DNA of 63,015 nucleotides, filler included, from Rhabdomonas costata (taxonomy: Eukaryota), in assembly GCA_019059605.1 (NCBI GenBank). It is 43 parts of 43 records of this genome, joined end to end, with 100 filler letters (N's around TTAATTAATTAA, not from the genome) between each part and the next. Parts side by side here need not be neighbours in the genome. Positions count along the whole stretch, not along the records: positions 39,647 to 41,013 come from JAHMHO010018043.1; 42 more parts are not named here. One strand, 5' to 3'. The notes beneath the pieces were generated by a model that saw only the letters and a program-made list of their open reading frames with translations, ran no database searches and was not told the DNA's origin. Each line of letters opens with the position of its first letter. Position 1 is the stretch's first letter. Below, in pieces: positions 2,836-63,015 of this stretch. A program made the position numbers and the translations under genes.

Positions 2836-3061
2836 NNNNNNNNNNNNNNNNNNNNNNNNNNNNNNNNNNNNNNNNNNNNTTAATTAATTAANNNNNNNNN
2901 NNNNNNNNNNNNNNNNNNNNNNNNNNNNNNNNNNNGGTGTGTGGTAGGTGCTTTGAATTACTTCCTTGCTGTGTTTTTGCGCTGTGGCCAAGTGCTCAAT
3001 GGAAGTTTCTTTTTCCGCTATGGCGCGGATGTGATTGTGGGTGGGTGGGTGTGTATTTCAG

Positions 3062-14023: not shown

Positions 14024-14305
14024 TTCTGGGGAGGACTCGAGATCCACTTCCCTTCTGGGCTCCAACCTTTCGATGGGGCATGGGCCCATCGGGCCTCACA
14101 CCCTTGTCGGTCCGTGGTACCTTGTCCCGCTGTCTTGTGATGTGATCACTTACCCCATGTGACTCTATCCACAGTGGGGCCTTGGGAACCCCGATTGGCG
14201 CGTTTAGAGATCTCTTTGTGGGTACCCAACCTTCCGCGCTCGTACGCTTCCCCTAGGGTCCTATTGCCGTTGTGGATTTCAGTCCTCCATCCCACTCCGG
14301 GCTTA
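14024..14305. repeat. Dispersed non-coding repeat family A, copy 1
   Basis: Aligns by eye, with indels, to the reverse complement of 21277-21558. Shared blocks include TTCTGGGGAGGACTCGAG, CTCACACCCTTGTC, GGGAACCCCGATTGGCGCGTTT and TCCCACTCCGGGCTTA. Confidence 0.9.
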
Positions 14306-15269
14306 GACCCGCTTTCCTATCCCTGCTGCCATCTGGACATCGCTTCTCTCCACTCTTCGCTTGCCCGGGCATCCCTTCGTGCCTTGTGGGCACTCCTTCG
14401 CTTCTTCGTTCCCTCTCTGGTCTCCCAGTTTTCGCTGCCATTCTCCCCTTCTCTCGTGCTGAACGGACTGCTCCTGTCCCACCGCAGGCTTTCCGTTCCT
14501 AGCTGCCACTCGCCACTTCGTCGTGGTAGTTGCTCTTGGTTGGGGGAAAAGGCCTCCACTGACTCAGTGTGGAGGGCCCCTGAAAAAAACCCNNNNNNNN
14601 NNNNNNNNNNNNNNNNNNNNNNNNNNNNNNNNNNNNTTAATTAATTAANNNNNNNNNNNNNNNNNNNNNNNNNNNNNNNNNNNNNNNNNNNNTGTGGTGG
14701 GTGTGGTTGGGGTTTGGGGGGCATAAATGCACTTCTGGCCATCTCTCCAGTGCATCGGGGAACATAAACACAAATACAAAAACACAATCACACAAAGATT
14801 ACCCATCCACAGTAATCACAAGATAAGTTCAGATTGTATCATCACGCCTAGGCAGAGAGAAAAGGGCTTACCACACTGCAACCGAAATTGACCCGGTACC
14901 GAATGTACGGTACGGACTACAGTGCGGCGGAAAACACAGCCACTCACAAGCGGCAAACCGCAAATGCGACAACAGCTGACAAAAATAGGGAGGGAGGGTA
15001 ATTCACGTATATGAAAGGTGTTGAGTGGATGAGGCACCAAAATAAAAATGTAAACATAGCAGACTGACAGCAGACTGACCGTCCCCCCAGGCCCAATACA
15101 ACCAATACAACAGTTCGACAAGAATTTTCAAAACCGAACTTGCTGGACTGGTGGGGCACGGGCGCTACGCTAATCCCTCCGCAAAAATCACGTATACCGT
15201 GGAAATAGTTTTTGACAAACGAAGAAATGTATGCAATCAGACGGACCGGGGCTCACACCTGCCACACAC

Positions 15270-16059
<790 letters not shown>

Positions 16060-21276: not shown

Positions 21277-21584
21277 TAAGCCCGGAGTGGGATTGAGGAT
21301 CCAAACCCACAAGGGCAGTCGGTCCCAAGGGGCAGTGTACGAGCCCGGAAGGTTGGATACCCACAAACGCGCCAATCGGGGTTCCCAGGGGGCCCCCGCA
21401 TACACTGTGGATCGAGGGTCGCATGGGGTATGCCAACCCTACTTGACAAGAGAGAGGGGCAAGGCACCGACAGACAAGGGTGTGAGACCTGATGAATCCC
21501 CGTACCCCGTCGAAAGGTGAGAGCCCGGGGGGGGGGGGACCTCGAGTCCTCCCCAGAAAAATTCGCCCTTGCCAAGTGCACAAA
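21277..21584. repeat. Dispersed non-coding repeat family A, copy 2 (opposite orientation)
   Basis: Reverse-complement match to 14024-14305. Its terminal AAAAATTCGCCCTTGCCAAGTGCACAAA also matches 54891-54918. Confidence 0.9.
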
Positions 21585-24868: not shown

Positions 24869-26437
24869 NNNNNNNNNNNNNNNNNNNNNNNNNNNNNNNN
24901 NNNNNNNNNNNNTTAATTAATTAANNNNNNNNNNNNNNNNNNNNNNNNNNNNNNNNNNNNNNNNNNNNCGTTGTTGTGGTAAAGTAGTTGTTGGCTTCAT
25001 GCATCTAATTGGATGCAGTAACATTCATTCGTGTACCAGCAGTGGAATGGATATACATCAACATTGGTGTTCTTGCATCTAGTGATTCCTGCATCGCAAT
25101 TTTAGCCTTAAATGGACGTTGTTTTTTCAGTTTTTCTGTGCTCACACTCTTTCATCTAAGTCACATCGGTGATTATTGAATCAAATGGTATTATTATCAA
25201 AAATGTATCCCACAATAGATCTCAGAATACAATTAAACATTAGCAGTAGGTATTGACATCTGTGGGGGTGGTAGAAATGGGCACCAATCGGCATGGCATT
25301 AGTGGTTAAGTGCATAGAGTCAATAGTGTATAGAGGTTCTGTCAATCAATATCACTCATCCAATATCAAACACCTGGGCCATAAGTTACACATGTGGTTA
25401 TAATATCAGCGGATGCTGTGGTGGTTATGGAATCTGTGTTGCATCATCACCTCGGCTGACATCTTGCATCAACACACGGTGTCACTACACATCGCTCTTG
25501 TTACAATGGGGTGCCTCTTCCTTCGTTTCGACAGGTATTCCAAATATATGTTGAGGAATACACGCGGATGCATACAACAAACAGTAACCATTCCACCCAA
25601 AGTCACAGTCACCATTTCAGCCACATTTACCAACAGCAACAACTCAACGACCAACCACACAACTCCAACACCACATCCCACACAATATGGCACTGAAATT
25701 AAAACTAAAATCATAGCAATAAAATCCATTTATGCACCACAACCTGACGACATGATCCAATGCACCAACACCATCCAAATTCAACTCCATAGACAATACA
25801 CTACATAAGTACACTATAACAGAATGTAATGAGCATGTATGAGTGGAATACAATGCATTAAATTGAATTGTTTGAAAACATATCACACAGCCCACACCTT
25901 ATCGTCATCACACCTACATCAGAGGAAAGAATGTGATGCCAAACATAAAAAAATATCACACCTCGTCACCACAACCAGCGTATCTACCATCAGCAGTAGA
26001 AGCCACCATGATTGAGACAAGGAATGGCAGCAACACAAACCTGTCACACATCATCACTGCTAATGATGACAGCATTGACACTCACACAACGGCCGTTGGT
26101 CCACTCATCCAGAGCTCAAACAAGCAACATATCAGCACTGGGATTGAGCACACATCATGAACCACCATCGCCCACAATGCACACCTGTCCTCCAACGCCT
26201 ACTACCCACACTACCACACTATGACCTTGCCTGCTACACATCTCCAAAGACAAACAAAATACCCTAAAACAACAGGATACGCTTCACAATACCACACATA
26301 GTGACACCACAACACAACCAAGCAGTACACCAACAANNNNNNNNNNNNNNNNNNNNNNNNNNNNNNNNNNNNNNNNNNNNTTAATTAATTAANNNNNNNN
26401 NNNNNNNNNNNNNNNNNNNNNNNNNNNNNNNNNNNNC

Positions 26438-26774
26438 GGAAGATGAGGAATTGCGGAAGCAACTGAAGAGTCTCCAGGAGCTTGGTTTTATAGAGCCAGA
26501 AACCTCGCCTTATGGCGCAGGTGTGCTGTTCGTTCCAAAGGCCAACGGTAAGTTGCGGCTGTGTGTTGATTACAGACCGCTTAATGCAATTACGGTTACA
26601 GATGCGTACCCTTTACCCCGAATTGACGAGATGATTGATCACGCGGGAAAGGCGAAGTGGTTCTCGAAGCTGGATTTGCATGCGGGATTTCATCAGATCC
26701 GCATTCATCCAGAGCATGTGGAGAGGATTCATTCAAGACAAAGTACGGTTCGTTCCAATTCAGAGTCATGCCCT
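26438..26774 (+). mobile_element. Ty3/gypsy LTR-retrotransposon reverse transcriptase fragment, frameshifted and truncated
   Basis: ELRKQLKSLQELGFIEPETSPYGAGVLFVPKANGKLRLCVDYRPLNAITVTDAYPLPRIDEMID...FSKLDLHAGFHQIRI, then after a frameshift near 26729 FKTKYGSFQFRVMP. Homology ends before the YxDD motif. Confidence 0.95.
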
Positions 26775-28299
26775 ATTTTTCTTTGGTCCTTCCAACCTTT
26801 ATTCCATATCATATCTCTCATTGTCTCGCTTGTGGGCCTTGCGCTTCTCTCTTTATCTCCCTCTCCCTTTCTTTCTGTCTTGCTTTTCCCGCTCTCAGTA
26901 GCGGGAACTCTTGCTGCTCCCGAAGCCCTTACGCCCATAACAACCAATCCACTGCATGCGTAGTAAGAACCCCTCATGGCTACAGAAAGCATCACACGCA
27001 GGGGTATGTCAACATCACTAGTCTTTCATCTTCTTAATGCTTGGTTGTGTTGGCCTGCCCACTTTCCCGTTTGGAGGGGGATGCTCATCTGTTTCTCGTG
27101 TTTTTTGTCGTTTCCTTACTTGCTCTCTTGCTTACTACATCAATTTAAACACAACCACGTTTCGGCTACAACAAAATTCCGCAGAAAGGCCATTCAAGGA
27201 CAAAACTGGGCAAAAAGGGGACCGCTGACAGCGTGAACATTTCAGCTGCCGGAAAACTGTTCCTGTGCAGAAGAACATGAATGAAGGAAACACTGTCGAC
27301 GTCCAATGAATGCCCATGGAATGCCCATGCGGTCGGGTCGCGTGCTTTCGGACTCCTTCCACGTGGCCTCCCGCGACGGGGCCTTCTCCGTCTCTCTACT
27401 GGCCGTCCTTCTATCACCTGGCCTTGCTTCCCTTCGCGCCCAGCAGATTGGCTTATCGCCGGACCTTTTGCATGACCAGGAACGGGTTTACGCGGGGCTC
27501 AGCTCTGATCTTTGCAACATGGGCGTTTTCCCACTGGGCTAAGGATGCAGAACACCAGGGTGGCCGTGACCGTAACGATGCGATCAGCCCACAACGGGGT
27601 TTGACCCCATGAGCTTTTTAGTAACATCAGGGTGCCTCGTTCAGAACGCCCGGGTTAGAAGGAGAATTTGGAATGGACTCCTTAGGGCTGTGCTTCGCGT
27701 ATTGGCAAATGAACATACGAATGAAAAAAAACAGTCCAGTTCTGCTGAATGGAGTCACCTGAAATGTAAGGACTTTTATGAAGAAACTTTTACGAAACAC
27801 CAACNNNNNNNNNNNNNNNNNNNNNNNNNNNNNNNNNNNNNNNNNNNNTTAATTAATTAANNNNNNNNNNNNNNNNNNNNNNNNNNNNNNNNNNNNNNNN
27901 NNNNGGTTTGGTGGTTGTTGTGAGGAGGAACGAACCACCTTATGGTGGGGAGTGACGACGAGTGGAAGATGTTGATGTCGTTAGTCAGTCGCTACGCTCC
28001 TTCCTTCCTCCTAAATGCGTGGTTCAGTCGCTCCCCGCATGCGGTACGCTCCTTCACAGATACAGAAGAGATAGAAGAAGAAGATGCTGGTCGTCGTCGC
28101 TACGCTCCTCCTCCTGTACATGTCGGCATTCACTGCGTTCATGCCTCCTATCCCCACTCGCTACCCGCTCATGGGGCCCCTTGGTTCTTTGCTGGTCGTG
28201 ACTCGCTATGCTCGTCACTCCATAGATGCTGAACTCAGAAGAAGGGGTATTCCTGTCGCATCTCCCTACGGTCGATGCTCCTATCCCATGATGAACTGA

Positions 28300-28870
28300 T
28301 GGAAAATGAATGATCCAATGATGGATATAGCATAGATATAATATCCAAAAACATGAGCTCATTGATATAACCTAGCTGTTTTGCTGGAAAAGCGCTCATA
28401 TAAATATTTGCGTCACTTGTGTAATTTGCAGATCCAAGCAATACTGAATTTTAATCTGTCATAACTAAACTTGTATCATTATATTGAATCTGACCAATAG
28501 AAATATAATTTGAGAAATTTTTAAATGTTGGACCACCCGCATATATTGTACATTTATACAAACAATATGTTAATGTTAGTTATACTCAGGCGAAACCATC
28601 ATGTAATTTGGATTGAATAATTTGCTCTAATCGTTCCTCCAAGAGTTGCAGATGGAAACCTTGGATTAGATGTTATTTGTGTAGAAATAATAGCTGTTGC
28701 TGTTGTTGTAATTTGTCATCATAAAACTTGATGAGGAGTTATCAACATATGAACGAATTGTAACATAACCGTTTTGAGCAATTCCAGAACCTCCCATACC
28801 ATTACCAAATGGTCCATAAATATGTGGATTTGTTTGTATTTAAATAGAATGTGAAGCATACGGGTATTTT
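28300..28870 (-). pseudogene. AT-rich decayed coding relic, possibly a viral structural or glycine-rich protein
   Basis: GC is about 25-35% by eye, well below neighbouring contigs. Interrupted minus frames read HIYGPFGNGMGGSGIAQNGYVTIRSY, TATAIISTQITSNPRFPSATLGGTIRANYSIQIT and TIYAGGPTFKNFSNYISIGQIQYNDT. Confidence 0.4.
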
Positions 28871-28889
28871 GATGTTTGGAGCTAGGCAT

Positions 28890-29058
28890 TTTCGGGGTTT
28901 TGGGGTCGGGGTTCGAGGTCTTGGGTTTGGATTTCGGGGTTAGGGGTTCAGTATTGGGGTTAGGTCTTAGTGTTCCCGAGTCGAGGATTTCAGGGGTTCG
29001 GAGTTTGGGGTTGGGGTTTGGGTTTCTGCCTTCGGGTTCGGCCTTCGTCTTCGGGTTC
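28890..29058 (+). repeat. Degenerate G-rich TT(A/C/T)GGG(G)-like repeat tract
   Basis: Run of TTCGGGG, TTTGGGG, TTAGGGG and TTCGGG units. Confidence 0.6.
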
Positions 29059-31170
29059 CTTGAAGTCCTTCGGGATTTCACAGATACACAAAACAATGGG
29101 AGTAGGTTAAGCAAAACAACGCCGGACTGCACAGGCTGTAAGGAAAATGACACCCAATCATTCGATGATGACAAACGTAGCGACTGAATGGCAACGATGA
29201 CTCGATAAGGATGCGGTCCGAAGCTTGATCACGACCATAGCGGCACGTCACTGTACACGTGATGACATACCGANNNNNNNNNNNNNNNNNNNNNNNNNNN
29301 NNNNNNNNNNNNNNNNNTTAATTAATTAANNNNNNNNNNNNNNNNNNNNNNNNNNNNNNNNNNNNNNNNNNNNGTGGGGGCTACGCCATGCGGACAGATA
29401 TAGACAGAAAAGAGACAAAGCCCTCATAGCAAGCAAGGTCCCAGCCATTAAGGTCAGAAGCGCATACTCTGCCCAGTCGGTGGCCGGATCCCTCGAGTGC
29501 TGCACAAAGACGTCGACAACACGCACAGCCTCCAGTCCTCGGATACACGGAGGGTGCAGGCCTCGCTGAGAGTGGGGAAAGGGAAGTGAAAGGAGGTGGG
29601 CACAATCGCTCGATTACTGAGGACAGAGAAGACCTGAGCAGCAAAACCCGCCACGGGCCCGCGACCAAAATTAAGCACTGCAAAATGAAGACGTCTGACA
29701 CACCTCGGGAAAGATTCTCAGCGTGAGGGAAGACTGGGAGCTCCGGTGGGAGAAAGACACTCGCCGCCTCGGCGTGGAGGACAGGGATCCGTGTGCTGAT
29801 GAGAGGTCCTCAGCCACGGAAACAGCCACGGGGTTGCGGGAGGGACAGGCTAGGGTCAGCCTGGCTCGCTCGGGAAGCACAACCGATGCTACGTGCGCGC
29901 ACAGGCGCATGGTGCGTGAGTCCGTGCGTGCGGGTCAAAGAGGAAGGTCACGAATGGGGGCTATCGAGGGGGGCCGCGGCCAAACGTGTACAATGGTTTT
30001 CCTAAACCCTTACAGAGCAATCCCATTGAAGGGTACTTTGGCAATATTTTGGGACCCCAAAAACGCTATGAGTCAAAAGTCTTTGCATCTCAAACCTACA
30101 ACATTGTCCTTTCGGGGGCACCCCCCGCAAACTTTTGGCGAAGTCTGTAAGTATATCGATGATGGCATCCTCACCTCCACCTTACGCACCAACACGTTTA
30201 ATACTAATGCTTTTTCGGGGGAAGGCCCATCAGCATCATTCCATGATGGAGAGAGCCTCACCTTTGCGCAGCACGGGCACCCTTGAGACCTCCTCAGCGT
30301 CAGTCTGGGTGCCGATGGAGCATGTCGGCGAGCCAGAATCCACGGGCACGGCCGGGGACGAGGGGTCTTCTGAGTGCGGTTGGCAATACTCGTGTGAATC
30401 AGCAGCCACACCTCACTGACCAAGTTTTCACACAAAGCAAGCAGTGGCTGAAGGAGCCGTAATAAATCACCTGGAAAATCCATTCCCTGCAGTGCAAGGG
30501 GCGCAGATAGTTTCATCGGAAACACAAGGGTGCGTTGGTTGAGGGTGGGTTGTGAGTGGGAGAGTGGTATTCAGCTTAATACACGCCGATCCGACGCCAA
30601 ACCCGAACGACGCCCTCGCCAAGGGCCGGATTCCTCAAAGAAAATCCCTTTGGTGGAGTAGTTGTGGAGAGCAGCACATGCACCTTCTGAGTCTCAGAGA
30701 GACAGGGCACTCCCTCCTCGAAAACCCCTTCCCCCCACCACNNNNNNNNNNNNNNNNNNNNNNNNNNNNNNNNNNNNNNNNNNNNTTAATTAATTAANNN
30801 NNNNNNNNNNNNNNNNNNNNNNNNNNNNNNNNNNNNNNNNNGGCACATTTCCATGCGAAGAAGATAAGCCTCTTTCCCCTGTTCGCGCATGCACTGCATC
30901 AGTTCTGAGGATTTGACGCAATTTTCTCTCAGAATTTCTTTGAGTGATGAGCCCGCTGAAGAAGGGAAATGCTATGTACTTCTTCTCGCCACGACAGGAA
31001 CGTCCAGCAGATTCTCTACACTGATGTCAGGTGCAGTCATGCATCCTGACTGGGGGGGGGGGGGCAGCGAATGGGCTGCCAAAAACAAAATCGAGGGCGG
31101 AAGGGCATCCTGGCTTCACATAATTTAACTTCAAAGGACACAAAAAAATGGTGGGGTAATGGCCGACCGG

Positions 31171-38038: not shown

Positions 38039-40031
38039 CTGAAAAACAGCAGAAAGCAGAAGGAAAGGGCCGATAACACNNNNNNNNNNNNNNNNNNNNN
38101 NNNNNNNNNNNNNNNNNNNNNNNTTAATTAATTAANNNNNNNNNNNNNNNNNNNNNNNNNNNNNNNNNNNNNNNNNNNNCAGCGTTACAATCTATGCGTA
38201 ACACCGGAGGAGGGGGACTGATGATAGCTACTATGAACCAGTGCATTTTGGACATGAAAGTGCGACGAGCAGTCTGCATAAGTACTTCAGCTTTGGTATT
38301 TGCCTGTTTTGCTGCGAGCGTGTTGTGGATGCAACAGTGTTCTCCGCAAACCTTTTGCCATGTTGCTGCTTATGGAGCCCACGGCCAGCAGGTCGGCAGT
38401 GATGCTTAGGGAATCGCCAAAGAAGTAATGGTTCTGACCCCGCTGAGAGTCCTCGATGCGCTGAAGCTGAGCCCAGTCCGGGCTTAGCGCTGCGCGCAGA
38501 GGAGGGAGAATCGGGAAAGACGATCTAGTGGCTCATTACACCTTTCGCAATGTAGGTTATACCGCAAAATTAGGGCCAAGGCAAAGCGAATGGAAATGTG
38601 TATGCAAAAGCCCATCAGTATTTGGAGCGTTCCCAGGAATTCAAATGAAAACTCGAAAAGATTAACTCTGAGTTTTAGGACGAAAATTACCCTCCATTTA
38701 TGATATGCGTACCTCGGGAAAAACTTTGCAGCCTAATTGGGAGCGAAAGAGGAAGCGCTTTGAACTGATGAAGCGAATAGTTTGCAGACAGGCGGGGCAA
38801 GGGAATCCAATGGCATAGGATTGATGAATGGAATGGTGAGGTGAGAAAGTGAAAAAAGAATGTGAAACCTGTAACCCCGCAGGCCAAAAAGTACAAGTAC
38901 ACCGCAGTGATGATCGATGCCCAGGTTTCCATTGACGCACGTACGATGGTGAAACAAACGGCAACAAGAAAAGGAATGCAATGCGGGAACACGCCTGAAA
39001 CATTCAAAATGTGAAAGCGTGATGAAACAGCTGCGGTGTCCTTTCACAATCTCATCAATGGAAGTCTGAGTGCATATGAATACAATGGCCCAAATTCGGC
39101 TTTCGATAATCCCGACACAAAGTGGTCCTTCCAAAACTGCAGTTCAGGATACTGAAGGGCAACGTGACAAACTGTGTGCATACCAGCAGCGGTTAAGAGA
39201 AGCACAGCATCTCAGCTCTTGACATTCAGTGCTCTGGAGCGTTTGGGGTCGGGTCGGGACGTTTCTGCGATTGGGGGTCCTGTGGTGTCCCTCACGCAGT
39301 ACCATGTTATTGATTTGTGCTGCCAGAAATGGAGACGCCACGAACGGAGGCGGTATGCAAGAGAATCGGGACAGAGATTGGCTGGTTTCCGGGCAGCGGC
39401 TGGCGCAATCCCATCATAATTTTGTACACATGTTCTGCACAGTGCACGGTCGTGCGGACTGGAAACGCAAACGGTCCAAGGAGGCAGCTCACCGCCGCTT
39501 CCCACTCGAGGTCCGCTTGCCACCCCCAGAGGGCCTACACCACCACNNNNNNNNNNNNNNNNNNNNNNNNNNNNNNNNNNNNNNNNNNNNTTAATTAATT
39601 AANNNNNNNNNNNNNNNNNNNNNNNNNNNNNNNNNNNNNNNNNNNNTTGTGTGTTTGGGTGGCTGGGGGACCCTTATCGTCCCTTATCGTCGAGGGGTGG
39701 AATTCTTGGCTCTGCTTGAGTGTGTGGTTGAGTGTGTGGTCGTTTATGAATACATGAATTCCCCCTTTGTCGTTCCTTGGGGGTCTAAGTAGCACCCCAT
39801 CGATCCTTCTCTACCAACCTCCGGACCAGCACCAGTCGTCAGGGGTCATCCCCAGAAAGGTGACTTTCCATATGAGTCGGAGCCCGAGCGGGACTGGCGC
39901 CGAAGGAACCGGCTCGAGTGTCAGCCAATGTTTGAACGATCCTGTGCAGGTCCTGGCCCAGTCGCCCAACTTTGTCTCAATTGGAGGTTTGCAAGGGTGT
40001 ATGTGTTGCATGTGCTTGTGTGCGCCTCAAG

Positions 40032-40625
40032 GCCTGCCCCTCGGGGTGCATCGGCGGCGGGGGACAGCCCCGGAGCAACGACCCCATGGTGCTGCAGAAG
40101 CGTATGGAGGCAATTTACAACCTGGACGGCAAGATGCCCCTGCGGTGAGTCGACTCCGCTCCCTATCACCACCCACCCTCTGCCTACTTCCTGCTCCCGC
40201 ACGCGGGCGCCCTCTCCGCGAGATGGGCGGTGTCTCTTCAACGGTACCGACTTCGCCAGACGCAGTTTGCGGCAACGGAAGTCGCCGATCGTCGGCAGTA
40301 TCATCTCTCGATCTCATCCGTCGCATCAAGAATCAACCATCTGCGAAGTAGAAAGCTTCTCTTTTTCCTATTGCACCTCATTTTCCGCACGTGCGCGCGC
40401 CTACACACGTCCGCACTTTCTTTACTTGCGCACAGCAAGAGCCACGAGAACCCTGCAATTACGAAGATTTATGCGGAGTTCTTCGAGAAGCCCGGCAGCC
40501 ACAAGTCCCACGAGCTTCTGCACACCCACTACACCGACCGCTCCCGCCGCGGCACCCCGGGTACGCCGGGCTCGCCAGGGCAGCTGGCACGGCGTTCTTC
40601 TAGCAGCCTGCTGAAGAAGGAGAAG
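40032..40625 (+). CDS. hydA: [FeFe]-hydrogenase, C-terminal part (H-cluster P3/L3 motif and small-subunit domain); exons 40032-40144, 40436-40625
   Basis: Spliced product ACPSGCIGGGGQPRSNDPMVLQKRMEAIYNLDGKMPLR|KSHENPAITKIYAEFFEKPGSHKSHELLHTHYTDRS. The intron is GTGAGT...CACAG in phase 2. The CxxGGGQP and KSHENP..HELLHTHY motifs fit true hydrogenases better than Nar1. Confidence 0.88.
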
Positions 40626-43227
40626 GTGCCTTATTCTCTCTTTATCTCTCTCTATGGGTTTGATTGTTTGGGCTCCACAGTTGCTCTTGGGCTGCGGTGA
40701 TTGCTACTGGATTGGGCGAAACCAACTCCTGTGTGTTCTCTTCCCCCCACTCTCGTGTTGTGACGTGCTACAGAAATGGCATGATAAAAGACAGAATATT
40801 CTGCGATGGGATTTCTCACCTCTCGAAAAAGCCCCCGAAACTTAAAACGGAGAAAAGAGAGGTTGGGAGATGAGCGTACAGTTCTTTTCTCTTCTCGGGG
40901 TTCTACCAGATGAGCCTATCTAGCCTCTGCATCCGACCTCCGGATCCTCACCAAACGTCGGGGGCCTCATCGGAAATGGGGGGGGGGATAGAACCTCTCA
41001 CTTTGGCTCAAAANNNNNNNNNNNNNNNNNNNNNNNNNNNNNNNNNNNNNNNNNNNNTTAATTAATTAANNNNNNNNNNNNNNNNNNNNNNNNNNNNNNN
41101 NNNNNNNNNNNNNGGGTGGTAGGGCGTGATTTTCAAGCGGCGAAGGCTCATTTTCGGATCGAATAATTCTCTTGGGTGATTCTAAGACAGTATGGCGACC
41201 GCACACTCGGCAGTGCAAATGAAACCCACCCTGCGCTTTTTGAAGCATTTCCGAAATCATTGCATCCTCAGTTTCATTTTCGATGTGTCGTTTTGTTGCA
41301 GCATTTCTTTTAAAACAAAATTACCCTCTCTTTTTCTGGAAGGGAGAAGCAATTCGGCCACCTGAGGTCGGGCTTGAGAACAGCTGAGCAGGTGGGCGCC
41401 CAGTGCCAGAACATGGCGTGTGGGGATCTGAGGAGGCCTCCGCGGTGGGCCGCAGCCCCCCTGGACCACCGCCTAGCCTAGGCACCTCCCGCGCAGCAGG
41501 AGCCACGAGGGGAGGACCCGGTCCAGCAAAGCCAGGGCTTGGGCGAGCCGCCGCGGGGGAAGGCACCTCCGAAGGCCCCGCACGAGAGGCAGGGAAACCG
41601 TTGTTGGGCGGGGCGCGAACGGAGAGTGCCGGAGAGGGGGCCGCAGGGAAAGGTGGCCGGATGGGAGCTCTTTGAGCTATTCTCGGCCTGTTGGGTTGGA
41701 TGACTGGGACCGTGCATGATTCGTCATATACAGTTCATAGAATACACTACAAAACAAACAACAAAAAATAAAGCACCGAACTGAGAAAGAAGAAACACTG
41801 CACTGTGGGCAGTATTAACTCTGGCCACCAGATCAACGCGTTGGAATGTGAGTCGGTGAGTGTAACTCAGTTTCGTAGTCTCTTGTGTGGAAATTCCGGC
41901 GGATTTGATCGGAGCTTTTAGGGTACTGCAAAAGAAAAACGACAAGGTCGTCTTATCCCCTCTCCACTCTTTTTCATAATACTCCCCCCCCCCCCCCCCC
42001 ACACACACAGTCCTTGAAACCTGTTGTGCAGAATGACAGATCCAACAACAAACGTCGTTGATAGGATTGAACTTCCCTCAAACAGACAAAAGCAGGTCGA
42101 TGAGCATTCCTTTCCTCTCATCCTACCTCCGTGCACGCGTGCCAACTCTGGGCCTGCCCTGCATTAATCCTTCAAGAAGAAGACTTCAAAAAGAAGAAAC
42201 CAGATTGAGCAAGCAGCTGAAACCTGGATTCTGGAGGTGCAAACGCTGCTGACGCCGGGACGTCAATGTTTCTCGCGAAGGTTTCGACAAATGAGGGCAG
42301 TGGACCACCCACCGCTGGAAATGCAAACCTGAGGCCCCACCCAGGAAGACCGCACAGAACCAAGGGCGTCACCTTGACTCATTGAGAAGAAAAAAGCAAG
42401 TCCCAGTCTATCGCCACAGCCCCGCAACACCCTTCTCCTCTGCCAGCAAAATACCCCACAAAACCAAACACACCCACCACNNNNNNNNNNNNNNNNNNNN
42501 NNNNNNNNNNNNNNNNNNNNNNNNTTAATTAATTAANNNNNNNNNNNNNNNNNNNNNNNNNNNNNNNNNNNNNNNNNNNNCGAAAAGCGAAAGAGGGTGA
42601 AAAGCGAGTGCTGCTCATTGTAAAAGACACTTGATTGACGTTTTTCGCATTCATTTGGGCTGAAGAAGAACTCAAACTTTGCAATGAGGTATAATGCGTG
42701 TGAAATGTTCACACCCCATGGTATTGAAATCACCACTTCCAGATATTATTCCATTGGTACGTAATATAAGGCCTAGGTAGAGGTGGAGTGGGAATATTGC
42801 TGGTGGCTTTTCTTGTTCACTGTGTGGTTTTTCTGCCGTCTTCGGCATGTAATGGAGCCTTGAAAAAGGTAACATCCTCGTGTTTGTTGCCGAAAGTCGA
42901 CCATTTTTGGCGTGTGGGCTTAGTGTTTTTCTTTGCCTTTCCACTGCCTCGTTTTTAAGCACATGTCTGGAGGCCAAAGTTTTGCAGGCACTGCGCATCA
43001 CAACCGCTTCATCTTCAATTTTCCCACTTCCCTGCTTCCCAGCTTCCGGACCAAACAGGATCCACTGTTGCAGCGCAATTACCACAGGAGCCAAAATACC
43101 CCTGACCCCTCATTTGCGAAGCGTTGCTCGTGGCTTCTAATCCGCAGGACCGTTGCCGTTGCCGTTGGTGCGTTTGGAATCTCTGCCGGGGGTTTTCCTT
43201 GAACCTTTCTTGTCTTGGCGTGCGCAG

Positions 43228-43746
43228 CATTTGTGGCTGTGGAAGAGGACGCCGAGGAGGTGGTGGTGGTGAAGGACGCGCCCCCGTTGCAGCGGAAGGC
43301 GGCGGAGCCCATCCGTGTGGTTGACCCCCACACCGGCCAATTGGTGCCCGCTGATCAGGTTGCCCTTCCATTGCCTCCTTTCTCTTTCTCTTTCCCATTG
43401 GATGCGCGCGTCTTTTGATGGGACTCTCCGTCTCCGGTGTGCTTGCTTTTCGGTCTTTGAATGGCAGAAACCACACACGCGAACAAACCGGCGTGGGGTT
43501 CTTTTTGCAGATCAGTGAGCACATGCGGATCAAGACGTTGGACCCGAAGTGGAAGGAGCAGCAGAAGCGCGAGCGAGAGAAGCAGTCCACCACAAACATC
43601 GCCCCCGACAGCGACATGGGCGGGGTGCTGTCCGCGTTTGCCTCGCGGCGTACGGATATCTTCGGAGATGTCGAGGGGGAGCTGGGCCAGAGCATGGACA
43701 CCCTGAAGAAGAAGCACGACAGCAAGCACGTCTGGGACGGCACAAA
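43228..43746 (+). CDS. SF3A1: Splicing factor 3A subunit 1 (SF3A1/Prp21), partial; exons 43228-43358, 43511-43746
   Basis: VVDPHTGQLVPADQ|ISEHMRIKTLDPKWKEQ...LSAFASRRTDIFG...VWDG matches the conserved EHMRI.LLDP.W.EQ and RRTDIFG blocks of SF3A1. Confidence 0.9.
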
Positions 43747-46479: not shown

Positions 46480-49400
46480 GTGTCTCTATGCCCTCCATTG
46501 TCCTTTGGGGCCCAATGGAAGGTGAGGGGATTTTAGCAGAAAAGTGCCTCAAAAATCATATTGAATTAATTTGAAACGGTAGGTAAAATTTGCTCTGTTT
46601 TTGTGCAAGGGGGTTGGGTGCAGATTGCCAGTACTCCCTGGATGAGTGTTTTTGCTTACTATCTGAAAATTGCTGCTGGCTGATGACTTGCAAATGGCTG
46701 GGATATGGCCGAAGGAGCAGGACAGAATGAGTTTACGGACGAAGGCCAGTCCGTGCCGCGGCGGGAGCGGACCGTGATCTTTTCACGACATTTTAAAGTA
46801 TATTCCCAAATAATAAAATAACATGGTCGCCATTATAAGGTGAACCGTCACCAATACCCCCCCCCCATGCACCCACCAACCNNNNNNNNNNNNNNNNNNN
46901 NNNNNNNNNNNNNNNNNNNNNNNNNTTAATTAATTAANNNNNNNNNNNNNNNNNNNNNNNNNNNNNNNNNNNNNNNNNNNNGGATGCATGAAGTACTCCA
47001 CGGTGTCCAGCCGCGATGTCAGCGCCGCTTGGTTCCGGCAAGGACGAAACATCCACTGCCTGCGACCCCCGTCGTCCCACCCTCCCTCCGACAAATTCCT
47101 CTCCTAGCGACCTGGGGTGGCTCAACCACAGTCAAGAGCGGAATTCAGCTCTGGTCTTGCAGCAGAACTCGCTCATACGATGAAGCCCGTTTGTTTTTCA
47201 AGAGGGCCGTGCGCGATGGTGAGCCACCCTACTGCAAGTGCGAGCACTCAACAGACGGCGCTGGCAAAAGTGAAAAACGGCGAAAGGCGAAAGAGAGAGA
47301 GAGAGAGAGAGCAAAAACCTCAGCAGCTGCGCCCCGATGGTGGATCGCGTCCGATTCAGGAGGCCGTAGAGAGAGTGGCCCTCCTTGGAGTGGCCAATGC
47401 CTGGTGAAAGTCAATCACTCAAAACCACGCGACTGAACACATCAGTCAGATAACTAACGCCAAACTTCAAATAAAATAAAAATAAAGATTGAACGAGGTA
47501 AAAGAAAAAACGGAAGCTGTTTTATAAGTCAGCGAACGAAACGGGGAGGTACGGAACACTTCGAAAGCCCAGCTTGAAAAGCCGCAAAACTCAAGGGCAA
47601 ACACACACACCTTGGTCAGCTGCAGGATGCCTCTGAATTTTGAAAATCTGAATTAAAAAAAAAGCGAGGGATGCGGTTCCCCTGCCCAATTCTTCAAGGG
47701 CGATGGGACCCACCGCAAGAACAGCAGACCTGCAACGCATTCAGCGTGCTCACGTCGACATTCATGACACCGCACCTGTGAAGTGAAGAAAAAAACACAG
47801 AGCCTGAGAAAGGTGAGATTTTGAAAAGAGAGAAAACAGGGCAGCACAAAATATGGAGCGGGGAGGGCAGAAATTAAATTGGGAAGTTGCTTCAAAGAGC
47901 TGAAAAGTTGAAAAGCATACAGCACAAGAAGGAGACGAGGAGCGGACCAGGATAAGAGTGTGAAAATGTGACGAAGTGCGAAGATGGTTGCACGCAAATC
48001 AACGTTGGGAGGGAGGGCTCGAGGGGGGTGGGGAGCTCCACCCAACATACATTGCGCACTGAACGATCCCCCGTATCTGAGCAAAACTAGCAGATGGCGT
48101 TTTCAGGAGGTGGCTCAGCAGGGCTCCTGCAGCGCGAACCTTTGGAGGGGGGAGGCTTTGGGGGATAGCAAAAAAAAGGGGAAAGAGACAAAGATCATGA
48201 GCGAGAAAGAGCAACCGGAACCTTAACGAAGACGTCCAAGCGCACGGCTGTCAAGCAAATGCGATGGTGAAGAAAAAGCTTATGGGCCCAGATAAGTTCA
48301 GTCCCTGCCAGCTGCTGGACTAGTCCGTTGATATTCACTTGATCTTAANNNNNNNNNNNNNNNNNNNNNNNNNNNNNNNNNNNNNNNNNNNNTTAATTAA
48401 TTAANNNNNNNNNNNNNNNNNNNNNNNNNNNNNNNNNNNNNNNNNNNNGTTTGGTGTGTGGGGTAATTGGCGATGCCTGTATATGCGTGTGTGACAGTTT
48501 TTTTTGGTGATTTGGAAAACGCCTCGTTTGGACACTGTGATACGCTTCCCCGAGTTAGATCCGAAAGGGGTTGAGGAATCCGTTGGAACATTTCATATCA
48601 GCCGCGCACAAAACTGGTGTCATTGTTGACTTATCCCGCACTTGTTTAAAAACGTCGCTATGCAAAACTAACGACGGGTTTAAATGAGACATGTGCAATT
48701 CTGCATGTTCTTCAAAATGGCAGGATCAACGATTGTGATAAAGTGTTATGAACTTCGAACTTCTCTGATGCCTTGTCCTGAATTGGAAGTGGAGGAGTGG
48801 CACGCGAAAAGTGCTCTGATTTTAAGTTGGTTGATGGAGTTTTCCCTCCTTCTCGTCTACTAATCTAACGGTTGGTGAGGCCCCCACCCCGCAGGACACG
48901 GGCGTAAGTGCATCTTTGATCCTCCTCCCGCTGGAAAGTGGATAAGTTGCATTTTGGATGCCCCCAATAATGATTGGGTCAAAGTACTTTCCCTCCCCTC
49001 CCAAGAAGTTGATTGGAGACGACTTCAGGACCCTAGCAATATGCTTCTCGCAGGGAATTAAAGGATGATCTGCGGGTCCTAAGGGAGTGCTTATGGGTCT
49101 CGTACTCAGAGGGCGATGCACCCTCTGGTGTTGCGCCACGAAGAGGCGCAGCGAAGCGGATTCCCAGGTTATTGCAGAATTGGTTCCCGCATGCACATAT
49201 GCACATGCAGCTGCGTATATTAAGGAAAGCTAAAGTAAGGTTCAAGCCAGGTAATCTGTATCAACGAGGAGATCCGAAAAGAGCCTTCGCCAGCATTTGT
49301 CCCCGAACTCTACGTTATGTTACAAGTCAGATTCACCTTCTGATGCATCGAAACATGGATAGGCGGAGCATTGTGCTGTCGTATGACTTTTGGAGCCTAA

Positions 49401-49488
49401 AAGTGTGTTCCGATCGGGTGGTGACTTTTATGAGTTGTGCATGCTTTCAGATTTCAGTGTAGTCTTTTTGTGCGATTTTCCTTCTGCA

Positions 49489-49815
49489 ATGGATGCCACT
49501 GCCCTCCACCATCCTGTGGTTTGGTCTGCGGCCTATGCTGTTGGCATTGATATGATAGATCGTCAGCACCGGCAGCTTTTCCAAGTCATTGAGAGCCTCC
49601 GGCGCGCCATTGTCAACAGTGAGGGGCAGGAAACGCTGCGGAACTGCCTGGGCAGCGTGCTCGACACGTGCTTTTTCCACTTTCAGAATGAGGAGAAGCT
49701 AATGCGGGTTGTGGCGTTTCCGGCGTTCCAGCAGCACGCGGCGCAGCACACAGCTTTTCAGAATCAGATGGCCGAGCACACGGAGCAGCTTGAGGCAGGA
49801 ACTCTCACCCCCACC
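49489..49815 (+). CDS. Hemerythrin (bacteriohemerythrin-like) domain protein, 3' partial
   Basis: WSAAYAVGIDMIDRQHRQLF...HFQNEEKLMRVVAFPAFQQHAAQH contains the W...y.vG...ID.QH, HF..EE..M and H...H iron-ligand motifs. Confidence 0.9.
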
Positions 49816-56440: not shown

Positions 56441-57498
56441 GGAACTGAGCTGAGATATTTTCATGCTGGGCACAGGGGTGCATAGCAGATGTGCATAACA
56501 ACCCCATTGTACGTATTCTTGTGTTTTTGTTTTGTTTCTGCTTCTGTGCAGATGAATTCCTGTTGTTGTTGTTTGCTAGGGTCCTACAAGCAATGCTCAC
56601 GCAGTGCCCGACCTTTTCATGCAGTTTTTGGGGGCTGCCCTTGGGCGTGCAGAGAGGGACGCAGGCGTGATAAGTTTTAACACTGCTCCCTCCGGCCTAA
56701 GATGTAGTATTGTCAAAATTACCGTTAAGAAGGCGTGGAGGAGCGGTTCGAGGTTTCCAGCAGCATCCATCTTTATTTTCTGTCGGCCTTCGAACGTGCA
56801 TCTACGGTCACCATTGAAATGTGGGGGAGGGGCGTTTCCTTCGGCTGCAACCTTCACCATTCACCCTTTACGCTATTCGCTGGGGATTTGCCAAAATCCC
56901 CCCCCCTCGCCCCTCAAGACCGCAGTCCGAGATAGAAATGGGCCAAAGGACCTCGCTCGGGCACTGCAATTTGAGCTGGACTAACCGATTGGAGTCCCTA
57001 TTTGGTGGGATGGTGGTAATTCTGAGTTCATTGTGGGTAGCAGCTTGTTGATTTGTCTCATTGGGTCATTGACCTTCTCAGCATTTCCAAGGGCCTGGTA
57101 AGCCCTTCGAGCTGAAGGGTAGTGCTGAGAAGGTCAATGACCCAACACANNNNNNNNNNNNNNNNNNNNNNNNNNNNNNNNNNNNNNNNNNNNTTAATTA
57201 ATTAANNNNNNNNNNNNNNNNNNNNNNNNNNNNNNNNNNNNNNNNNNNNGGGGGGGAGGGCGACAAAAATGGCAAAGCTGGGCCTAAAACATGACACTTG
57301 TGGGTGGAACTGGTCGCAGTTGTGAAGAAAACAAACAGGGGGATGTGGAGATCGGGAGAGGTTAATGACCGACAGTTGGAATAGAACCGAATATGGGATC
57401 TTCGAATCATGGTACAGGTAGAGATGGGAACGAAAGCCACATACCTGCGTTTAGCTTCTGAATGAGCCCTTATTTCTGTTGATCCGTCTGCAACGCAG

Positions 57499-57793
57499 GC
57501 AAGCTTTGGATGCGCTTGGGCTCAAGAGGTACTGCTGCCGAAGAATGATTCTCACTCATGTCGATCTCATTGAGAAACTTTTGGCTTACAACAGTATGTG
57601 TACCCCTTTTTTGTGGACTTCGAAGCACTTCCTCGTGGTTCAAATTTTCGTTTCACCTGCTTTGCTCGTCTTGTCAGCTCCGGAGAGAAACGCTGGGGGG
57701 GCTGTTCTTACCGGCGCTGTGCCCCGAGGTGCATCCTCCCTTCCGGGGTCAGCCTCTGCACCTCCATCCCTGACTCCCAGGGCAGCCACATAG
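57499..57793 (+). CDS. RPB10: RNA polymerase I/II/III shared subunit RPB10 (RPABC5), 5' partial; exons 57499-57593, 57678-57793
   Basis: [30 protein letters not shown] is the RPB10 signature. An 84-nt GTATGT...TCAG intron follows. Confidence 0.95.
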
Positions 57794-58613: not shown

Positions 58614-60566
58614 NNNNNNNNNNNNNNNNNNNNNNNNNNNNNNNNNNNNNNNNNNNNTTAATTAATTAANNNNNNNNNNNNNNNNNNNNNNNNNNNNNNN
58701 NNNNNNNNNNNNNCGGGCTGGTTTCCTTCCATAAGGCCAGAAGTTTTAATTTTTAATTTTTATAAATGGTGGTAGGCTCCACAGCGTTGTGCAGCACCAT
58801 GTCAAAATGCATCGGCTGCAAAGAATGAGCCACTTGAGGCGTCACAAAAAGCGTGTACGCCTGCTTCCCAACTGGAGCACGTGTGGCTGCGTGGTAAAAA
58901 AAGACTCTAATGCACCAGCAATGGCCTCTTTCAAGCTGACTGGCTTGTAATATTTTACCACTTCGCGAATGTGATAGCGGTCAAGTGCTTTTGTCATTTT
59001 CACAATCATTGCAGGGTTAACTGTGAGACCTCATCGGGCAGCTTTCTATGTTTCATTCCCGCGTAGCATTTCAGTTCTCAGTGCAGAAACCGCTAGATGT
59101 TCCCCGTGTATTTGTTGAACTGCTGGTTTTTTTGTCAACTTGAGGAGGTGATACGCTTGCGAAGTCTACTGAGTTTATAAATTGCGCTCGGAGAACTACG
59201 GCTGGTTAGATGTGTTACCGTTATGCCAATTATGGAAAAGTTTACCACCACTCCTGAAAAAATATACGGAAAACTAACCAAGTGGAGACAAGTAATAGTC
59301 TCGAAAGCTGTCCCTGTAAAAATAATTCTGTGACAACAATGAAGTGCATGCTCTGTAAACCATATCGCTTTTACGCCCACCACTGGCGCGTGTGGTTTAT
59401 TACAGCATAACTGTTCACATGATTTAATTCTTGGCGGAAGAAGCCGATCCGGCACACTTGGCTGGGCAAAACTAGTGTCTTACTCCGCTTTCACGGCTGG
59501 GAGACAGACGCCATATATTGGAATGGGGGAAATGGTCTTACAACAGGTTTGAGAAAAAACCAATACCCAAATCATTAAGAAATAAAGTAAGGTACAACGT
59601 AAACTCAGAACTGCGCCATACCACATGGCTGTTTTTAAATCATATCTTTACCTTCCTTCTCAACAAACAGCTGGTTAGAGAATTAATAATTCGCTTCAAA
59701 AGATCAATGCACTCACGGAATCACTCTCTTCGAAGCCTATTTCCAACTGCCTTTTAGGTTACCAGTCAAGGAAACAGTCCGGGTTCATCACATAACATGT
59801 CACCAGACAGCGGCATTCCTATATGCTGAAAAGACTTCGAATAGAAAACCGTCACCTGCCATTTTCTGAGTTTCCTGGTGTAACGTACCCGTACCTTATT
59901 TAATTTAATAGATTTATCACTTACACATAACAGCCCATATTTAGAACAAAAATTCCAGATTACTCCTCCGAAAACATTATGGGTATCGTCACTACCGTGT
60001 GTACTGCACTGGATCCGGCAGAAAAAAGGCGCAAAATACAACCTTCCAACATTCGTGGTGTCGCAATGTGGTAGTGGCGTNNNNNNNNNNNNNNNNNNNN
60101 NNNNNNNNNNNNNNNNNNNNNNNNTTAATTAATTAANNNNNNNNNNNNNNNNNNNNNNNNNNNNNNNNNNNNNNNNNNNNTACGCATCTGGTCCCGTTCC
60201 AGTCTCAGATGGCGAGTGGGAGGACGCACACACACACACTTTGAGCACTTGGCCGGGACGACTTTTTTCTGGGGAAGACACACACACACACACACACACA
60301 CACCGCCCGATACCTCTTTCGAGTGACGACCGGACGATTGTTGATTGCTTTTCAAGAATACCAGTTCCCCAGAACCGGAACCTTCGGCAGTCCCCTGTCA
60401 ACCTTTGATGACTCACCGTCCGCCAACACCACGTGAGCAGTAATCTGTGCTTATCCGATCGTGGCCAATGCCCCCATGTGTGGCGTGCAACCATGCTTGC
60501 AAACCGGAAGACAACCATGGGTCTCGGATGGATGAACCAGAGTTCAAAGCACTTCGTGCAGTATAC

Positions 60567-61236
60567 CGGAATGATCTCTGCGTTGGCGTCAAAGCTGAGC
60601 TCGTAGTCGTTGGGGAGGTTGCTGAACCTCTTGTTCGCTGCCTTGACGTTCCCCTTGGAGAAGTAGTACACCTGCAAAGAAGATAGTGTGGTCGTCCCGA
60701 AAGGAAGTCCAGTGACACCATTGGCATTGTAAGACTTGGGAAGTGGGACAGTGTGCTTACAACATCCACGCGGCAGAACTCTGACAGTGAGACAAGTATG
60801 CATCGCAGAGGTTACATTTGAATGGAACAACTTAACTTTACGTCCTGGCCAAAACTTCAGCAATTTAGAAACAACCCAAGCGCAAAAATCATCCAAAACG
60901 CCGCTCTGATTGCACCTCTGACGCTTATCTCAAAGTCCAATCGATTGTCCAGTGTTCAGCAGCACGAAGTACAATTCACCGAAACAAGCCAATTGTCGGG
61001 GGAACGAGTTCCATTCGAGACGAAGAGAAAAGCCATGTCCCAACTTCCTCCCTTTTTTCACCTTGTCATTCTCGATGAGGTCGTAGAACTTGTCCACGGC
61101 GTCGTTGAACAGCGTGGCGCGGATGGCGTCCTTCTTTTCGTCAACCAAAGTGAACGAGAAAAGCTGCCCCTGTCCCGAGGGCTTCGACCACGACTTCTTC
61201 GTACTCTTGTCCAGAACCCGAGCCTTGATCCACCAC
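60567..61236 (-). CDS. RPA1: Replication protein A large subunit, DBD-A OB fold; exons 61236-61062, 60671-60567
   Basis: WWIKARVLDKSTKKSWSKPSGQGQLFSFTLVDEKKDAIRATLFNDAVDKFYDLIENDK|VYYFSKGNVKAANKRFSNLPNDYELSFD. Confidence 0.95.
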
Positions 61237-63015
61237 CTGTGCATACGAGAGGCAATCTGTTTTTCTGCCCCCGCAGCGACAAAAGAACAACAGAAAAAGA
61301 AAACAGAAACAACTTGGCTTGTTTTGCTTCCATCCCTTCTGCTGTCGCTGTGACTATGGGACTCCCCCCCCTCGTCAATCCAACCGAAAAACAATCCAAA
61401 CGCACTCTGCAAAAAACCAGTCGCACCACATGATTGCAAGTGAATGAAAGAGAGAAGCCCTCCCTCCCTCCCTCTCTCCTTCAATGGCGCCCCTCTTTGC
61501 TCCCTCTTGTCTTCAGTCGTTACTGTGTGTACGGACATCCAGCCCACANNNNNNNNNNNNNNNNNNNNNNNNNNNNNNNNNNNNNNNNNNNNTTAATTAA
61601 TTAANNNNNNNNNNNNNNNNNNNNNNNNNNNNNNNNNNNNNNNNNNNNAGCAGAGAAAATTTCTTTTGGTTAGATAAGACTTAGGAATCTCAAGAGTTGG
61701 TGAAGAAGATGTGCATTTTGACAAGATGTTCTAGGCACAGTGCAGGACTTCGATTCGCTGTGAGGAGCAGATAACGTGCAATCGATGTGACATGGGATTT
61801 AGAGTTGGGAGGGGGGGGGGCGGAGAAGGTAACACCGTCACCGACAACCGACGACAAGAGACGACACGTAGTTCGCCGTCGCCCACATCTTTCCCTCGCT
61901 CGAGGACTCAGGCTGCCTCATTTGTCATTAGCAGTTCCCGTCAGCGATTTCGGCAAGTCCCCTATTCCGGATACTCGCTACAGTTATCAGGCTTGCCATC
62001 AGGAAGAACAATTTGCCCCAATGAGCACCCACGAGGCACCACCAGGAAACCTTGTTATCCCACGATGCAAACAACAGGCTGAAAAGCCAACAGTGGGGAA
62101 ACGCATGTTTTAACGGAACTGTCTTGGAGGCTCGAAAGCCAAAGAGATCCTAGCTGGAGAGTACATACGCCAAGGCAGCGGGTACTCCGTGTAGAACCGC
62201 TTCGCGCCGAAGTACGTGAAATGCTTCGGCTTCAAAGGCTGCGCACAAACACCAAACGGGATCGAACAAAACGCCTGTCCTCCTGACGAGAGTGCACTCC
62301 GCAACCGCAACCGAATTGTTCCCCCGGCGCACGTCTCCTGTGTGAATTCAGTCCAAGAGACTTCGACGTGAGGCCGAGCTTGGGTTTACTGAAGCCCACC
62401 ACAGAAACCGAATGCCCTCAAACTGGCCAGTACGGTCATCGGATCGGATGAAGACCCGAGCTCCCAAAGCGCATAGTAGAATAGATATTCAACATCCTGG
62501 TTGTGGTTGTCGCTCATGGCAAAATGTGTTTCCCAAAATAGTCTTGACCCAGCCTCTTAAAAAGCTCCTCCGCAGAGTGGAGCACAAAGGAGATCCACAG
62601 GGGTATTCCCAATAGCCTACCCCAAGTACAGGGTGTCCCATTAAAAATAAGAATTATACTTTTTGAATACAACCTACTGTAAATTAGGGGGTGCTGCCTG
62701 TATTTTCTTCGTTTTCATTCATGTGGTAGCCTCTTCTGCGGACCCAAACCCACACTGCTGAAAGTTTAAAAAGAAGATCTGACAGGAAGATAAAAATGCG
62801 ACCGGCAGCAGAGCACTGCTGTCTGCAAAGGCTGTCTGACTTCCGGCGCCGCAAGCACTTGCACAGCGGAAGCGTGATTTAGATTTTTCGCAATAGCCCT
62901 TTGGCATATTTCGACTGCACAAAACGGCCAAAAACTGTGCAAAAATTTTTTTCCGCCACTTCGATGTAATCTTCCTATTCCCCCAAACAATTCAACACGG
63001 AGGAGGCCAAAACCC

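Follow-up and report, generated by a model that had tools for sequence, protein, structure and literature searches.

One contig within a 63,015-base stretch of DNA, here called the window, was found to carry a fragment of an [FeFe]-hydrogenase gene. The fragment very probably consists of two internal exons of a nuclear HydA-type gene from an intron-rich eukaryote, and the predicted protein is most likely of the 'long', CysJ-fused kind. The window is composed of 43 separate contigs of 1364-1381 bp each, with N...TTAATTAATTAA...N spacers between them. The hydrogenase contig occupies positions 39647-41013 and the true context of the gene is these 1367 bp only; because the window was assembled by joining contigs, its neighboring genes are unlinked.

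All parts of the gene lie on the plus strand. Exon 1 (40032-40144) encodes ACPSGCIGGGGQP...KMPL and two bases (CG) of an arginine codon, and has a GC content at third codon positions (GC3) of 0.89; its product covers the H-cluster L3/P3 motif, including the two cysteines, and the beginning of the small-subunit-like domain; direct reading of the DNA gives an open stretch with the product ACPSGCIGGGGQPRSNDPMVLQKRMEAIYNLDGKMPL followed by the bases CG. The next 291 nt (40145-40435) form a spliceosomal-type, phase 2 intron of the form GTGAGT...CAG, with its donor GTGAGT at 40145-40150 and a pyrimidine-rich 3′ end, ...ctttacttgcgcacAG / ...ctttctttacttgcgcacAG, at 40435. It contains an in-frame TGA at 40146-40148, and its GC3 is 0.49-0.62 depending on the phase. 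Exon 2 (40436-40625) encodes (R)KSHENPAITKIYAEFFEKPGSHKSHELLHTHY, the rest of the small-subunit-like domain, and then a 31-residue linker rich in Pro, Gly, Ser and Arg that ends in KKEK. The codon split between the exons, CG/C, encodes the Arg conserved in '(I/L)RKSHENP', which was present in every homologue inspected. The exons were spliced by coordinates in a script and together encode 101 residues, from the L3/P3 motif and its two cysteines through the small-subunit-like tail to the 31-residue linker; the HydA core used for comparison comprises 74 residues. The intron was called because, once it is removed, the exons align colinearly and without gaps to HydA in Pfam, NCBIfam and the PDB. 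Its GT-AG ends, pyrimidine-rich 3′ end and the gap-free frame after removal are those of a U2-type intron. A reading of this DNA made earlier from the sequence alone (the sequence-only reading) had joined two exons across a GT-AG phase 2 intron, and its coordinates were right: the split Arg codon is restored and the alignment with homologues is colinear.

Upstream of exon 1, positions 39647-40031 are read as part of a further intron that runs off the start of the contig, with a pyrimidine/GT-rich tract, an acceptor AG at 40030-40031 and a GC3 of 0.56. Searches by tblastn with four full-length homologues found nothing HydA-like in any frame upstream of about 40020. Since HydA similarity ends abruptly at the AG at 40031 and no upstream match occurs in any frame, at least two introns must interrupt the gene within 1.4 kb. 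Against the whole window the same four queries returned the two exons only, the next matches having E values of at least 0.047, and a catalytic-domain exon with the L1 and L2 motifs (PF02906) was found neither on the contig nor in the rest of the window. At the other end, the GC3 of exon 2 is 0.81 overall (core 0.84, linker 0.77) and 0.46 directly after 40625. The end of the exon was set at 40625 because GC3 drops there and a GT follows, which agrees with the earlier placement of this boundary. The GT at 40626 is followed by a pyrimidine-rich stretch, and the frame is otherwise open to a stop codon at 40698-40700. A third intron starting at 40626 is thus probable; it would begin with GTGCCT, have a GC3 of 0.46 and extend beyond the end of the contig (40626-41013, with an inferred boundary).

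The fragment encodes a genuine HydA-type (group A) [FeFe]-hydrogenase, an assignment made by comparison with HydA-side sequences. The Pfam profile Fe_hyd_SSU (PF02256) matched exon 2 over profile positions 22-56 with an E value of 2e-18 and 66.6 bits (cut-off 24), whereas the match to the exon 1 frame, at positions 3-21, was below the cut-off (E 0.059). The NCBIfam model FeFe_hydrog_A6 (NF040763) matched both exons, at positions 497-534 for exon 1 (E 1e-09) and 537-571 for exon 2. Among solved structures, exon 1 aligned with residues 372-413 of Chlamydomonas-type HydA1 (PDB 3lx4, E 3.5e-12) and exon 2 with residues 414-446 (E 4.7e-07), exactly adjoining the exon 1 match; the best PDB match of exon 2 was the electron-bifurcating HydA1 of 8a6t (E 2.1e-08). 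The L3/P3 motif of HydA proteins has the pattern of two cysteines followed by GGGQ. In the window, ACPSGCIGGGGQP at 40032-40070 aligns with MACPAGCVGGGGQP of the PDB HydA1, and the residues that precede the A would lie in an upstream exon off the contig. The H-cluster L3 motif and the small-subunit domain recognized in the sequence-only reading are both borne out, by a 3lx4 match that spans the two cysteines and by the Pfam profile, which is well above its cut-off for exon 2 and below it for exon 1.

With a 42-residue query from exon 2, 1590 of 1622 candidate proteins reached E ≤0.001; the top 120 are 67-86% identical and have hydrogenase domains, and those that carry a name are called '[FeFe] hydrogenase, group A/A6' or similar. 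Exon 1 varies more than exon 2. Its word-indexed search gave five matches at E ≤0.001 among six candidates, and the top three were all fusion proteins: P0122 (1169 aa, 82%), P0123 (1201 aa, 75%) and P0031 (949 aa, 74%). An exhaustive exon 1 search of 1.84 billion representatives returned 193 proteins at E ≤0.001, with P0122 as the best single-stretch match. Over the 74-residue core, gap-free identity was 75.7% to P0122, 73.6% to P0031, 72.6% to P0132 and 69.9% to P0123, and 68.9-70.3%, also gap-free, to bacterial group A6-type proteins.

According to Pfam, P0122, P0123, P0031 and P0132 have the catalytic domain and the SSU-like domain followed by Flavodoxin_1 and FAD_binding_1; NAD_binding_1 was listed as well for P0031 and P0132. 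P0122, P0123 and P0132 carry a 2Fe-2S NuoG-like domain at the N-terminus, together with Fe-S domains. A flavodoxin domain follows the hydrogenase in 12 of 14 further matches that were scanned with Pfam. One of them, P0214, is merged with RasGEF domains and so suggests a gene model from a eukaryote. The 273-aa fragment P0131 looks like genomic read-through of such a gene, with extra unmatched stretches both in the linker and past the point where the flavodoxin domain begins. In P0130 (4122 aa) seven separate stretches match the 37-residue exon 1 query (E 2e-57), as in a tandem array or a merged gene model. A metagenome scan with P0122 recovered its own 4108-nt contig (L001, with one uninterrupted frame at 285-3791) and a 1006-nt fragment; that scan gave no genomic relative of greater length for the window gene. 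Residues 1-40 of P0123 form an Arg/Ser/Thr-rich extension before the 2Fe-2S domain that resembles an organellar targeting peptide, in contrast with the cytosolic or unknown location given for fused hydrogenases in the portions of the literature available (PMC4989108, PMC10703272).

A phylogeny was computed by maximum likelihood from proteins aligned over 70 or more of the 74 core residues, of which 185 had been collected. The 75 distinct sequences with the highest scores and all fusion-like ones, 79 together, were combined with the window sequence into 80 rows of 75 columns; the others were omitted to limit the size. The window sequence fell in a group of six rows with P0132, P0031, P0122, P0123 and P0131, that is, with four confirmed fusions and P0131, which looks like a fifth. 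Support for this group was 98 by ultrafast bootstrap and 76 by the Shimodaira-Hasegawa-like approximate likelihood ratio test (SH-aLRT), and 90/85 for its inner node, with the bootstrap not fully settled. Affinity with the fused hydrogenases is therefore the best-supported placement suggested by the alignment, with moderate support; it does not reach significance because only 74 residues are compared. The earlier suggestion of a phylogeny with HydA and Nar1 sequences was carried through on its HydA side, where the window groups among HydA and HydA-CysJ proteins; the rows included no Nar1.

The C-terminal end of the fragment bears on the domain structure of the complete protein. An LHTHY-type motif was present in 122 of the 129 proteins collected by then, and the tail that follows it was at most 17 residues in 109 of these 122, 21-47 residues in 10 and about 600 residues in 3. 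In the window, coding-type GC3 (0.77) continues for 31 residues after the motif, and is then followed by the GT and a GC3 of 0.46. In P0122 the SSU domain ends at residue 567 and the flavodoxin domain begins at residue 599, a gap that is likewise 31 residues. On account of the coding-like linker, the GT with the collapse in GC3, and the P0122 linker of equal length, there is a somewhat better than even chance that the protein continues into a CysJ-like reductase module, the exons for which would lie past the end of the contig.

Several observations weigh against a fused hydrogenase of the window's main genome. The view is limited to 101 codons, outside of which lie the L1 and L2 motifs as well as the maturases and expression. 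Downstream of 40626 no flavodoxin exon was found, and tblastn gave no match to P0031 or P0122 there. No starred branch of the tree holds the window sequence, and the margin of the fusions over the bacterial group A6 enzymes is small (69.9-75.7% vs 68.9-70.3%). Placing the window with the bacterial-type trio P0074/P0128/P0037 was not rejected by the approximately unbiased (AU) test (p 0.296). The frame remains open as far as the stop at 40698, which leaves room for a stand-alone HydA extended at its C-terminus. Furthermore, the tetranucleotide composition of the hydrogenase contig has a correlation of r 0.676 to the pooled rest of the window, the sixth lowest of 43, and the contig has no repeat in common with any other contig of the window.

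The alternative that survives best is a eukaryotic HydA that stands alone, in which the frame runs on to the stop codon at 40698-40700 and gives a 55-residue C-terminal extension. Apart from the open frame and the placement left open by the AU test, it draws on the 10 of 122 homologues with tails of 21-47 residues and no fusion, and on the best solved-structure match of exon 1, which is the Chlamydomonas-type stand-alone HydA. The shift in GC3 from 0.77 to 0.46, however, occurs exactly at the GT at 40626, with a pyrimidine-rich stretch after it, the fusions are the nearest relatives both by identity and in the tree, and the linker equals that of P0122 in size. We regard a stand-alone enzyme as unlikely, although well within the range of what these data allow, and retain the CysJ-fused hydrogenase as the preferred reading.

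The gene belongs to the nucleus of an intron-rich eukaryote and not to a bacterium, as judged from its structure: it is split by ordinary GT-AG introns. Whether the contig derives from the same genome as the housekeeping genes of the window can be judged from their exons. All 144 open reading frames (ORFs) of at least 110 aa and 300 of the 406 ORFs of 60-109 aa were scanned with Pfam, the other 106 lying from 47201 onward. Two exons of PRP43/DHX15 were found on the minus strand at 15799-15945 and 15266-15388, through Pfam HA2_N and a PDB match to DHX15/Prp43 of E 1e-21, vs 1.6e-11 for DHX16. A GT-start intron lies between them; both have GT donors, and one has a pyrimidine-rich acceptor ending in AG. 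Helicase and polymerase motifs, sought in the six-frame translation, gave no match, PRP43 having surfaced via HA2_N. A DBD-A exon of RPA70 (RPA1) is located at 61059-61238 on the minus strand (PDB 1jmc, E 4e-14), and a word search with this exon returned one relative, P0129, of 391 aa and 62% identity, without the N-terminal Rep-A_N domain in the Pfam scan. On the plus strand, Pfam identified a PRP21/SF3a-like exon at 43508-43744 and an exon of RNA polymerase subunit N (RPB10) at 57491-57580, which must be preceded by an intron because its match begins at profile position 29.

The GC3 of these housekeeping exons is 0.92 and 0.71 for PRP43, 0.85 for RPA1 and 0.89 for PRP21, amid DNA of about 50-56% GC. 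The hydrogenase exons, with a GC3 of 0.81-0.89, have the same signature as the PRP43, RPA1 and PRP21 exons. Because both exon GC3 and intron style match those of PRP43, RPA1 and PRP21, origin from the same host genome is favored, and the hydrogenase contig is likely to come from the genome that carries the housekeeping genes. A tetranucleotide comparison, suggested together with the sequence-only reading for the RPA1 and PRP43 contigs and made against the pooled rest of the window, agreed in part: the hydrogenase contig falls within the main tetranucleotide group (r 0.66-0.86) and apart from three outliers with r <0.46, but at the low end of that group (r 0.676).

Derivation of the contig from a different eukaryote than the main source of the window, such as prey or a co-sorted cell, is improbable. 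Single contigs of 1.37 kb are not reliably binned, and the three clear compositional outliers show that the assembly is not perfectly clean; the low tetranucleotide rank and the lack of shared repeats given above also fit a second eukaryote. Against this stand the position of the contig in the main group and not among the outliers, the similar GT-AG introns with pyrimidine-rich 3′ ends, and the exon GC3 of 0.81-0.89 relative to non-coding DNA of about 50-58% GC, which is the pattern of PRP43 exon A, RPA1 and PRP21.

Far less probable is a bacterial hydA, or a dead copy, with an intron-like insertion. Many bacterial enzymes are 75-86% identical to exon 2, yet the insertion has the ends GTGAGT...CAG and its removal restores a conserved Arg codon and exact colinearity. 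HydA similarity stops abruptly at the AG at 40031 and is absent from every frame farther upstream, the 101 codons contain no frame disruption, and the gene structure is of the eukaryotic type shared by the spliceosome and replication genes in the window. The sequence-only reading had excluded a bacterial contaminant on account of the intron, and this exclusion is upheld by the introns, the lack of HydA coding upstream of 40032, and a GC3 and intron style like those of the housekeeping contigs.

A Nar1/NARF-type protein of cytosolic Fe-S assembly, in place of a catalytic hydrogenase, is just as hard to credit: a cysteine domain characteristic of iron-only hydrogenases persists at the C-terminus of Nar1 (in the part of PMC6006210 available), Euglena gracilis has only a NAR-like protein (likewise PMC10407231) and the visible part of the window gene is the L3 end only, but identity to group A hydrogenases is up to 86% for exon 2, the group A6 model of NCBIfam matches both exons, the tree neighbors are all HydA or HydA-CysJ, and no chain named Nar1 occurs among the PDB matches listed for the exons or among the best 60 of 205 for P0122. 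Because the spliced core is 69-76% identical to genuine HydA proteins, the Nar1/NARF reading is very unlikely; the earlier preference for HydA over these paralogues thus holds on the core identity and the A6 model matches, with HydA-side sequences as the basis of comparison.

The encoded peptide has both cysteines of the last H-cluster motif and conserved small-subunit-like helices. The gene looks to be under selection because its frame is undisrupted and its codon bias is like that of other exons of the genome. We take the cysteines, by analogy with CpI and HydA1, to ligate the [4Fe-4S] subcluster and to form the bridge to the [2Fe] subcluster. The C-terminal small-subunit-like helices would pack against the catalytic domain and, together with the parts encoded by upstream exons, the predicted enzyme would reduce protons to H2. 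If the protein is fused to a reductase, electrons would pass from NAD(P)H via FAD/FMN and accessory Fe-S clusters to the H-cluster. Such activity would require HydE, HydF and HydG, none of which turned up in the general Pfam scan of window ORFs; in 59 kb their absence means nothing. We infer the catalytic activity and cellular role from sequence, and the step from this gene to an 'H2-producing anaerobic metabolism', as put forward in the sequence-only reading, is of the same inferential kind.

The introns also bear on the host lineage. Several conventional introns per gene fragment disfavor a trypanosomatid-like, nearly intron-free genome; kinetoplastids are described as 'extremely intron-poor' in the text available of PMC12621601. 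The introns are compatible with many eukaryotes, diplonemids and euglenids included. For Euglena gracilis only a NAR-like transcript was found, according to the accessible part of PMC10407231, and some euglenozoans of anoxic habitats have hydrogenosome-like organelles (PMC6856725, in part). No report of HydA in Euglenozoa was found in the accessible portions of the full-text literature searched, a scope outside of which subscription journals fall, and 'FeFe' and 'HydA' are absent from the main text (not supplements) of comparative papers on diplonemid, kinetoplastid and euglenid metabolism. It is a tentative possibility, well short of an even chance, that the host is a euglenozoan rich in conventional introns, such as a diplonemid, a euglenid relative or a symbiontid, and that this HydA is the first for the phylum and of the NuoG-HydA-CysJ kind.

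[FeFe]-hydrogenases mark the disposal of electrons as H2 by eukaryotes at low oxygen, and their patchy distribution is central to the debate on the spread of anaerobic metabolism in protists. Because this copy is nuclear and carries introns, there is firm evidence of ownership by a protist and against a bacterial contaminant. If the host were a euglenozoan, the gene would suggest a hydrogen-evolving redox valve in a lineage for which only a NAR-like protein or no hydrogenase is reported, and would fill a gap in the known distribution of HydA. The likely CysJ fusion would link the gene to a poorly understood class whose formation of H2 from NAD(P)H is no more than a hypothesis in the part of PMC10703272 available. 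The gene record is solid but fragmentary, and its wider interest rests on the identity of the host and the rest of the pathway.

Coding density in the window is very low: a Pfam match was obtained for 6 of the 144 ORFs of at least 110 aa and for 1 of the 300 scanned ORFs of 60-109 aa. The matches in the scanned ORFs are limited to SSU, PRP43, RPA70, the PRP21-like protein, RNA polymerase subunit N, a reverse transcriptase and a hemerythrin. A further stretch resembling an RPA70 exon lies downstream of the DBD-A exon on the same strand, within 60183-60929. The hemerythrin HHE domain is encoded at 49387-49815 on the plus strand in a frame that is open to the contig end (Pfam E 2e-08, residues 53-137, GC3 0.73); its product would be an O2- or iron-binding protein, which might fit a low-oxygen lifestyle. 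The reverse transcriptase (RVT_1) fragment is at 26532-26714 on the plus strand. An Rfam search over the whole window gave no RNA gene (no rRNA, spliced leader RNA or small nuclear RNA). The only sizeable repeat between contigs is a dispersed element of about 298 nt with 75% identity, at 14024-14305 and 21277-21558 on opposite strands. The three outlier contigs (24969-26336, 27905-29273 and 58714-60080) have a GC content of 0.42-0.44 and a tetranucleotide correlation to the rest below 0.46; they contain long ORFs without a Pfam match and may be organellar, repeat-rich or foreign DNA.

Among the known systems for comparison are Nar1, NARF and CIAO3. These proteins have the same ancestral fold and retain the C-terminal cysteines, as described in the part of PMC6006210 available, whereas the window peptide has HydA-level conservation of the small-subunit-like region, a likeness judged against HydA only. 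The loop from GGGGQP to RKSHENP in Chlamydomonas reinhardtii HydA1 (3lx4) is 24 residues long, as in the window, without gaps. HydA1, however, consists of an H-domain alone and terminates shortly past the HTHY-type motif, while the window gene goes on for at least 31 coding-like residues. With the bacterial HydA enzymes, NADH-dependent group A6 and electron-bifurcating, the window shares matches of both exons to the A6 model, and core identity to the Thermotogota type is 68.9%, gap-free. The structure 8a6t is the best PDB match both for exon 2 and, in the best 60 of 205 matches, for the hydrogenase part of P0122. Bacterial HydA genes differ in that they have no introns and end 2-13 residues past the motif; in the window gene, two introns at the least and probably three fall within 1.4 kb.

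The nearest relatives are the NuoG-like-HydA-CysJ proteins P0122, P0031, P0132 and P0123, which share with the window the 'CPSGC' variant of the motif and are 70-76% identical over 74 residues. Their reductase and NuoG-like parts are features of these proteins and are absent from the window contig, for which the fusion is predicted. An intron separates L from RKSHENP in the window gene but not in its relative P0131. In the portions of PMC4989108 and PMC10703272 available, fused hydrogenases are described from Trichomonas vaginalis, Pygsuia biforma, Stygiella incarcerata, Pelomyxa schiedti, Trimastix marina and Paratrimastix pyriformis, with a location predicted to be cytosolic in some species and unknown in others, and those of PMC10703272 hypothesize that they form H2 from NAD(P)H. 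The comparison with this class was made through database proteins such as P0122 and, for the named species, by description only. The fused HydA class is thus already known, and the window gene is most likely a further example of it.

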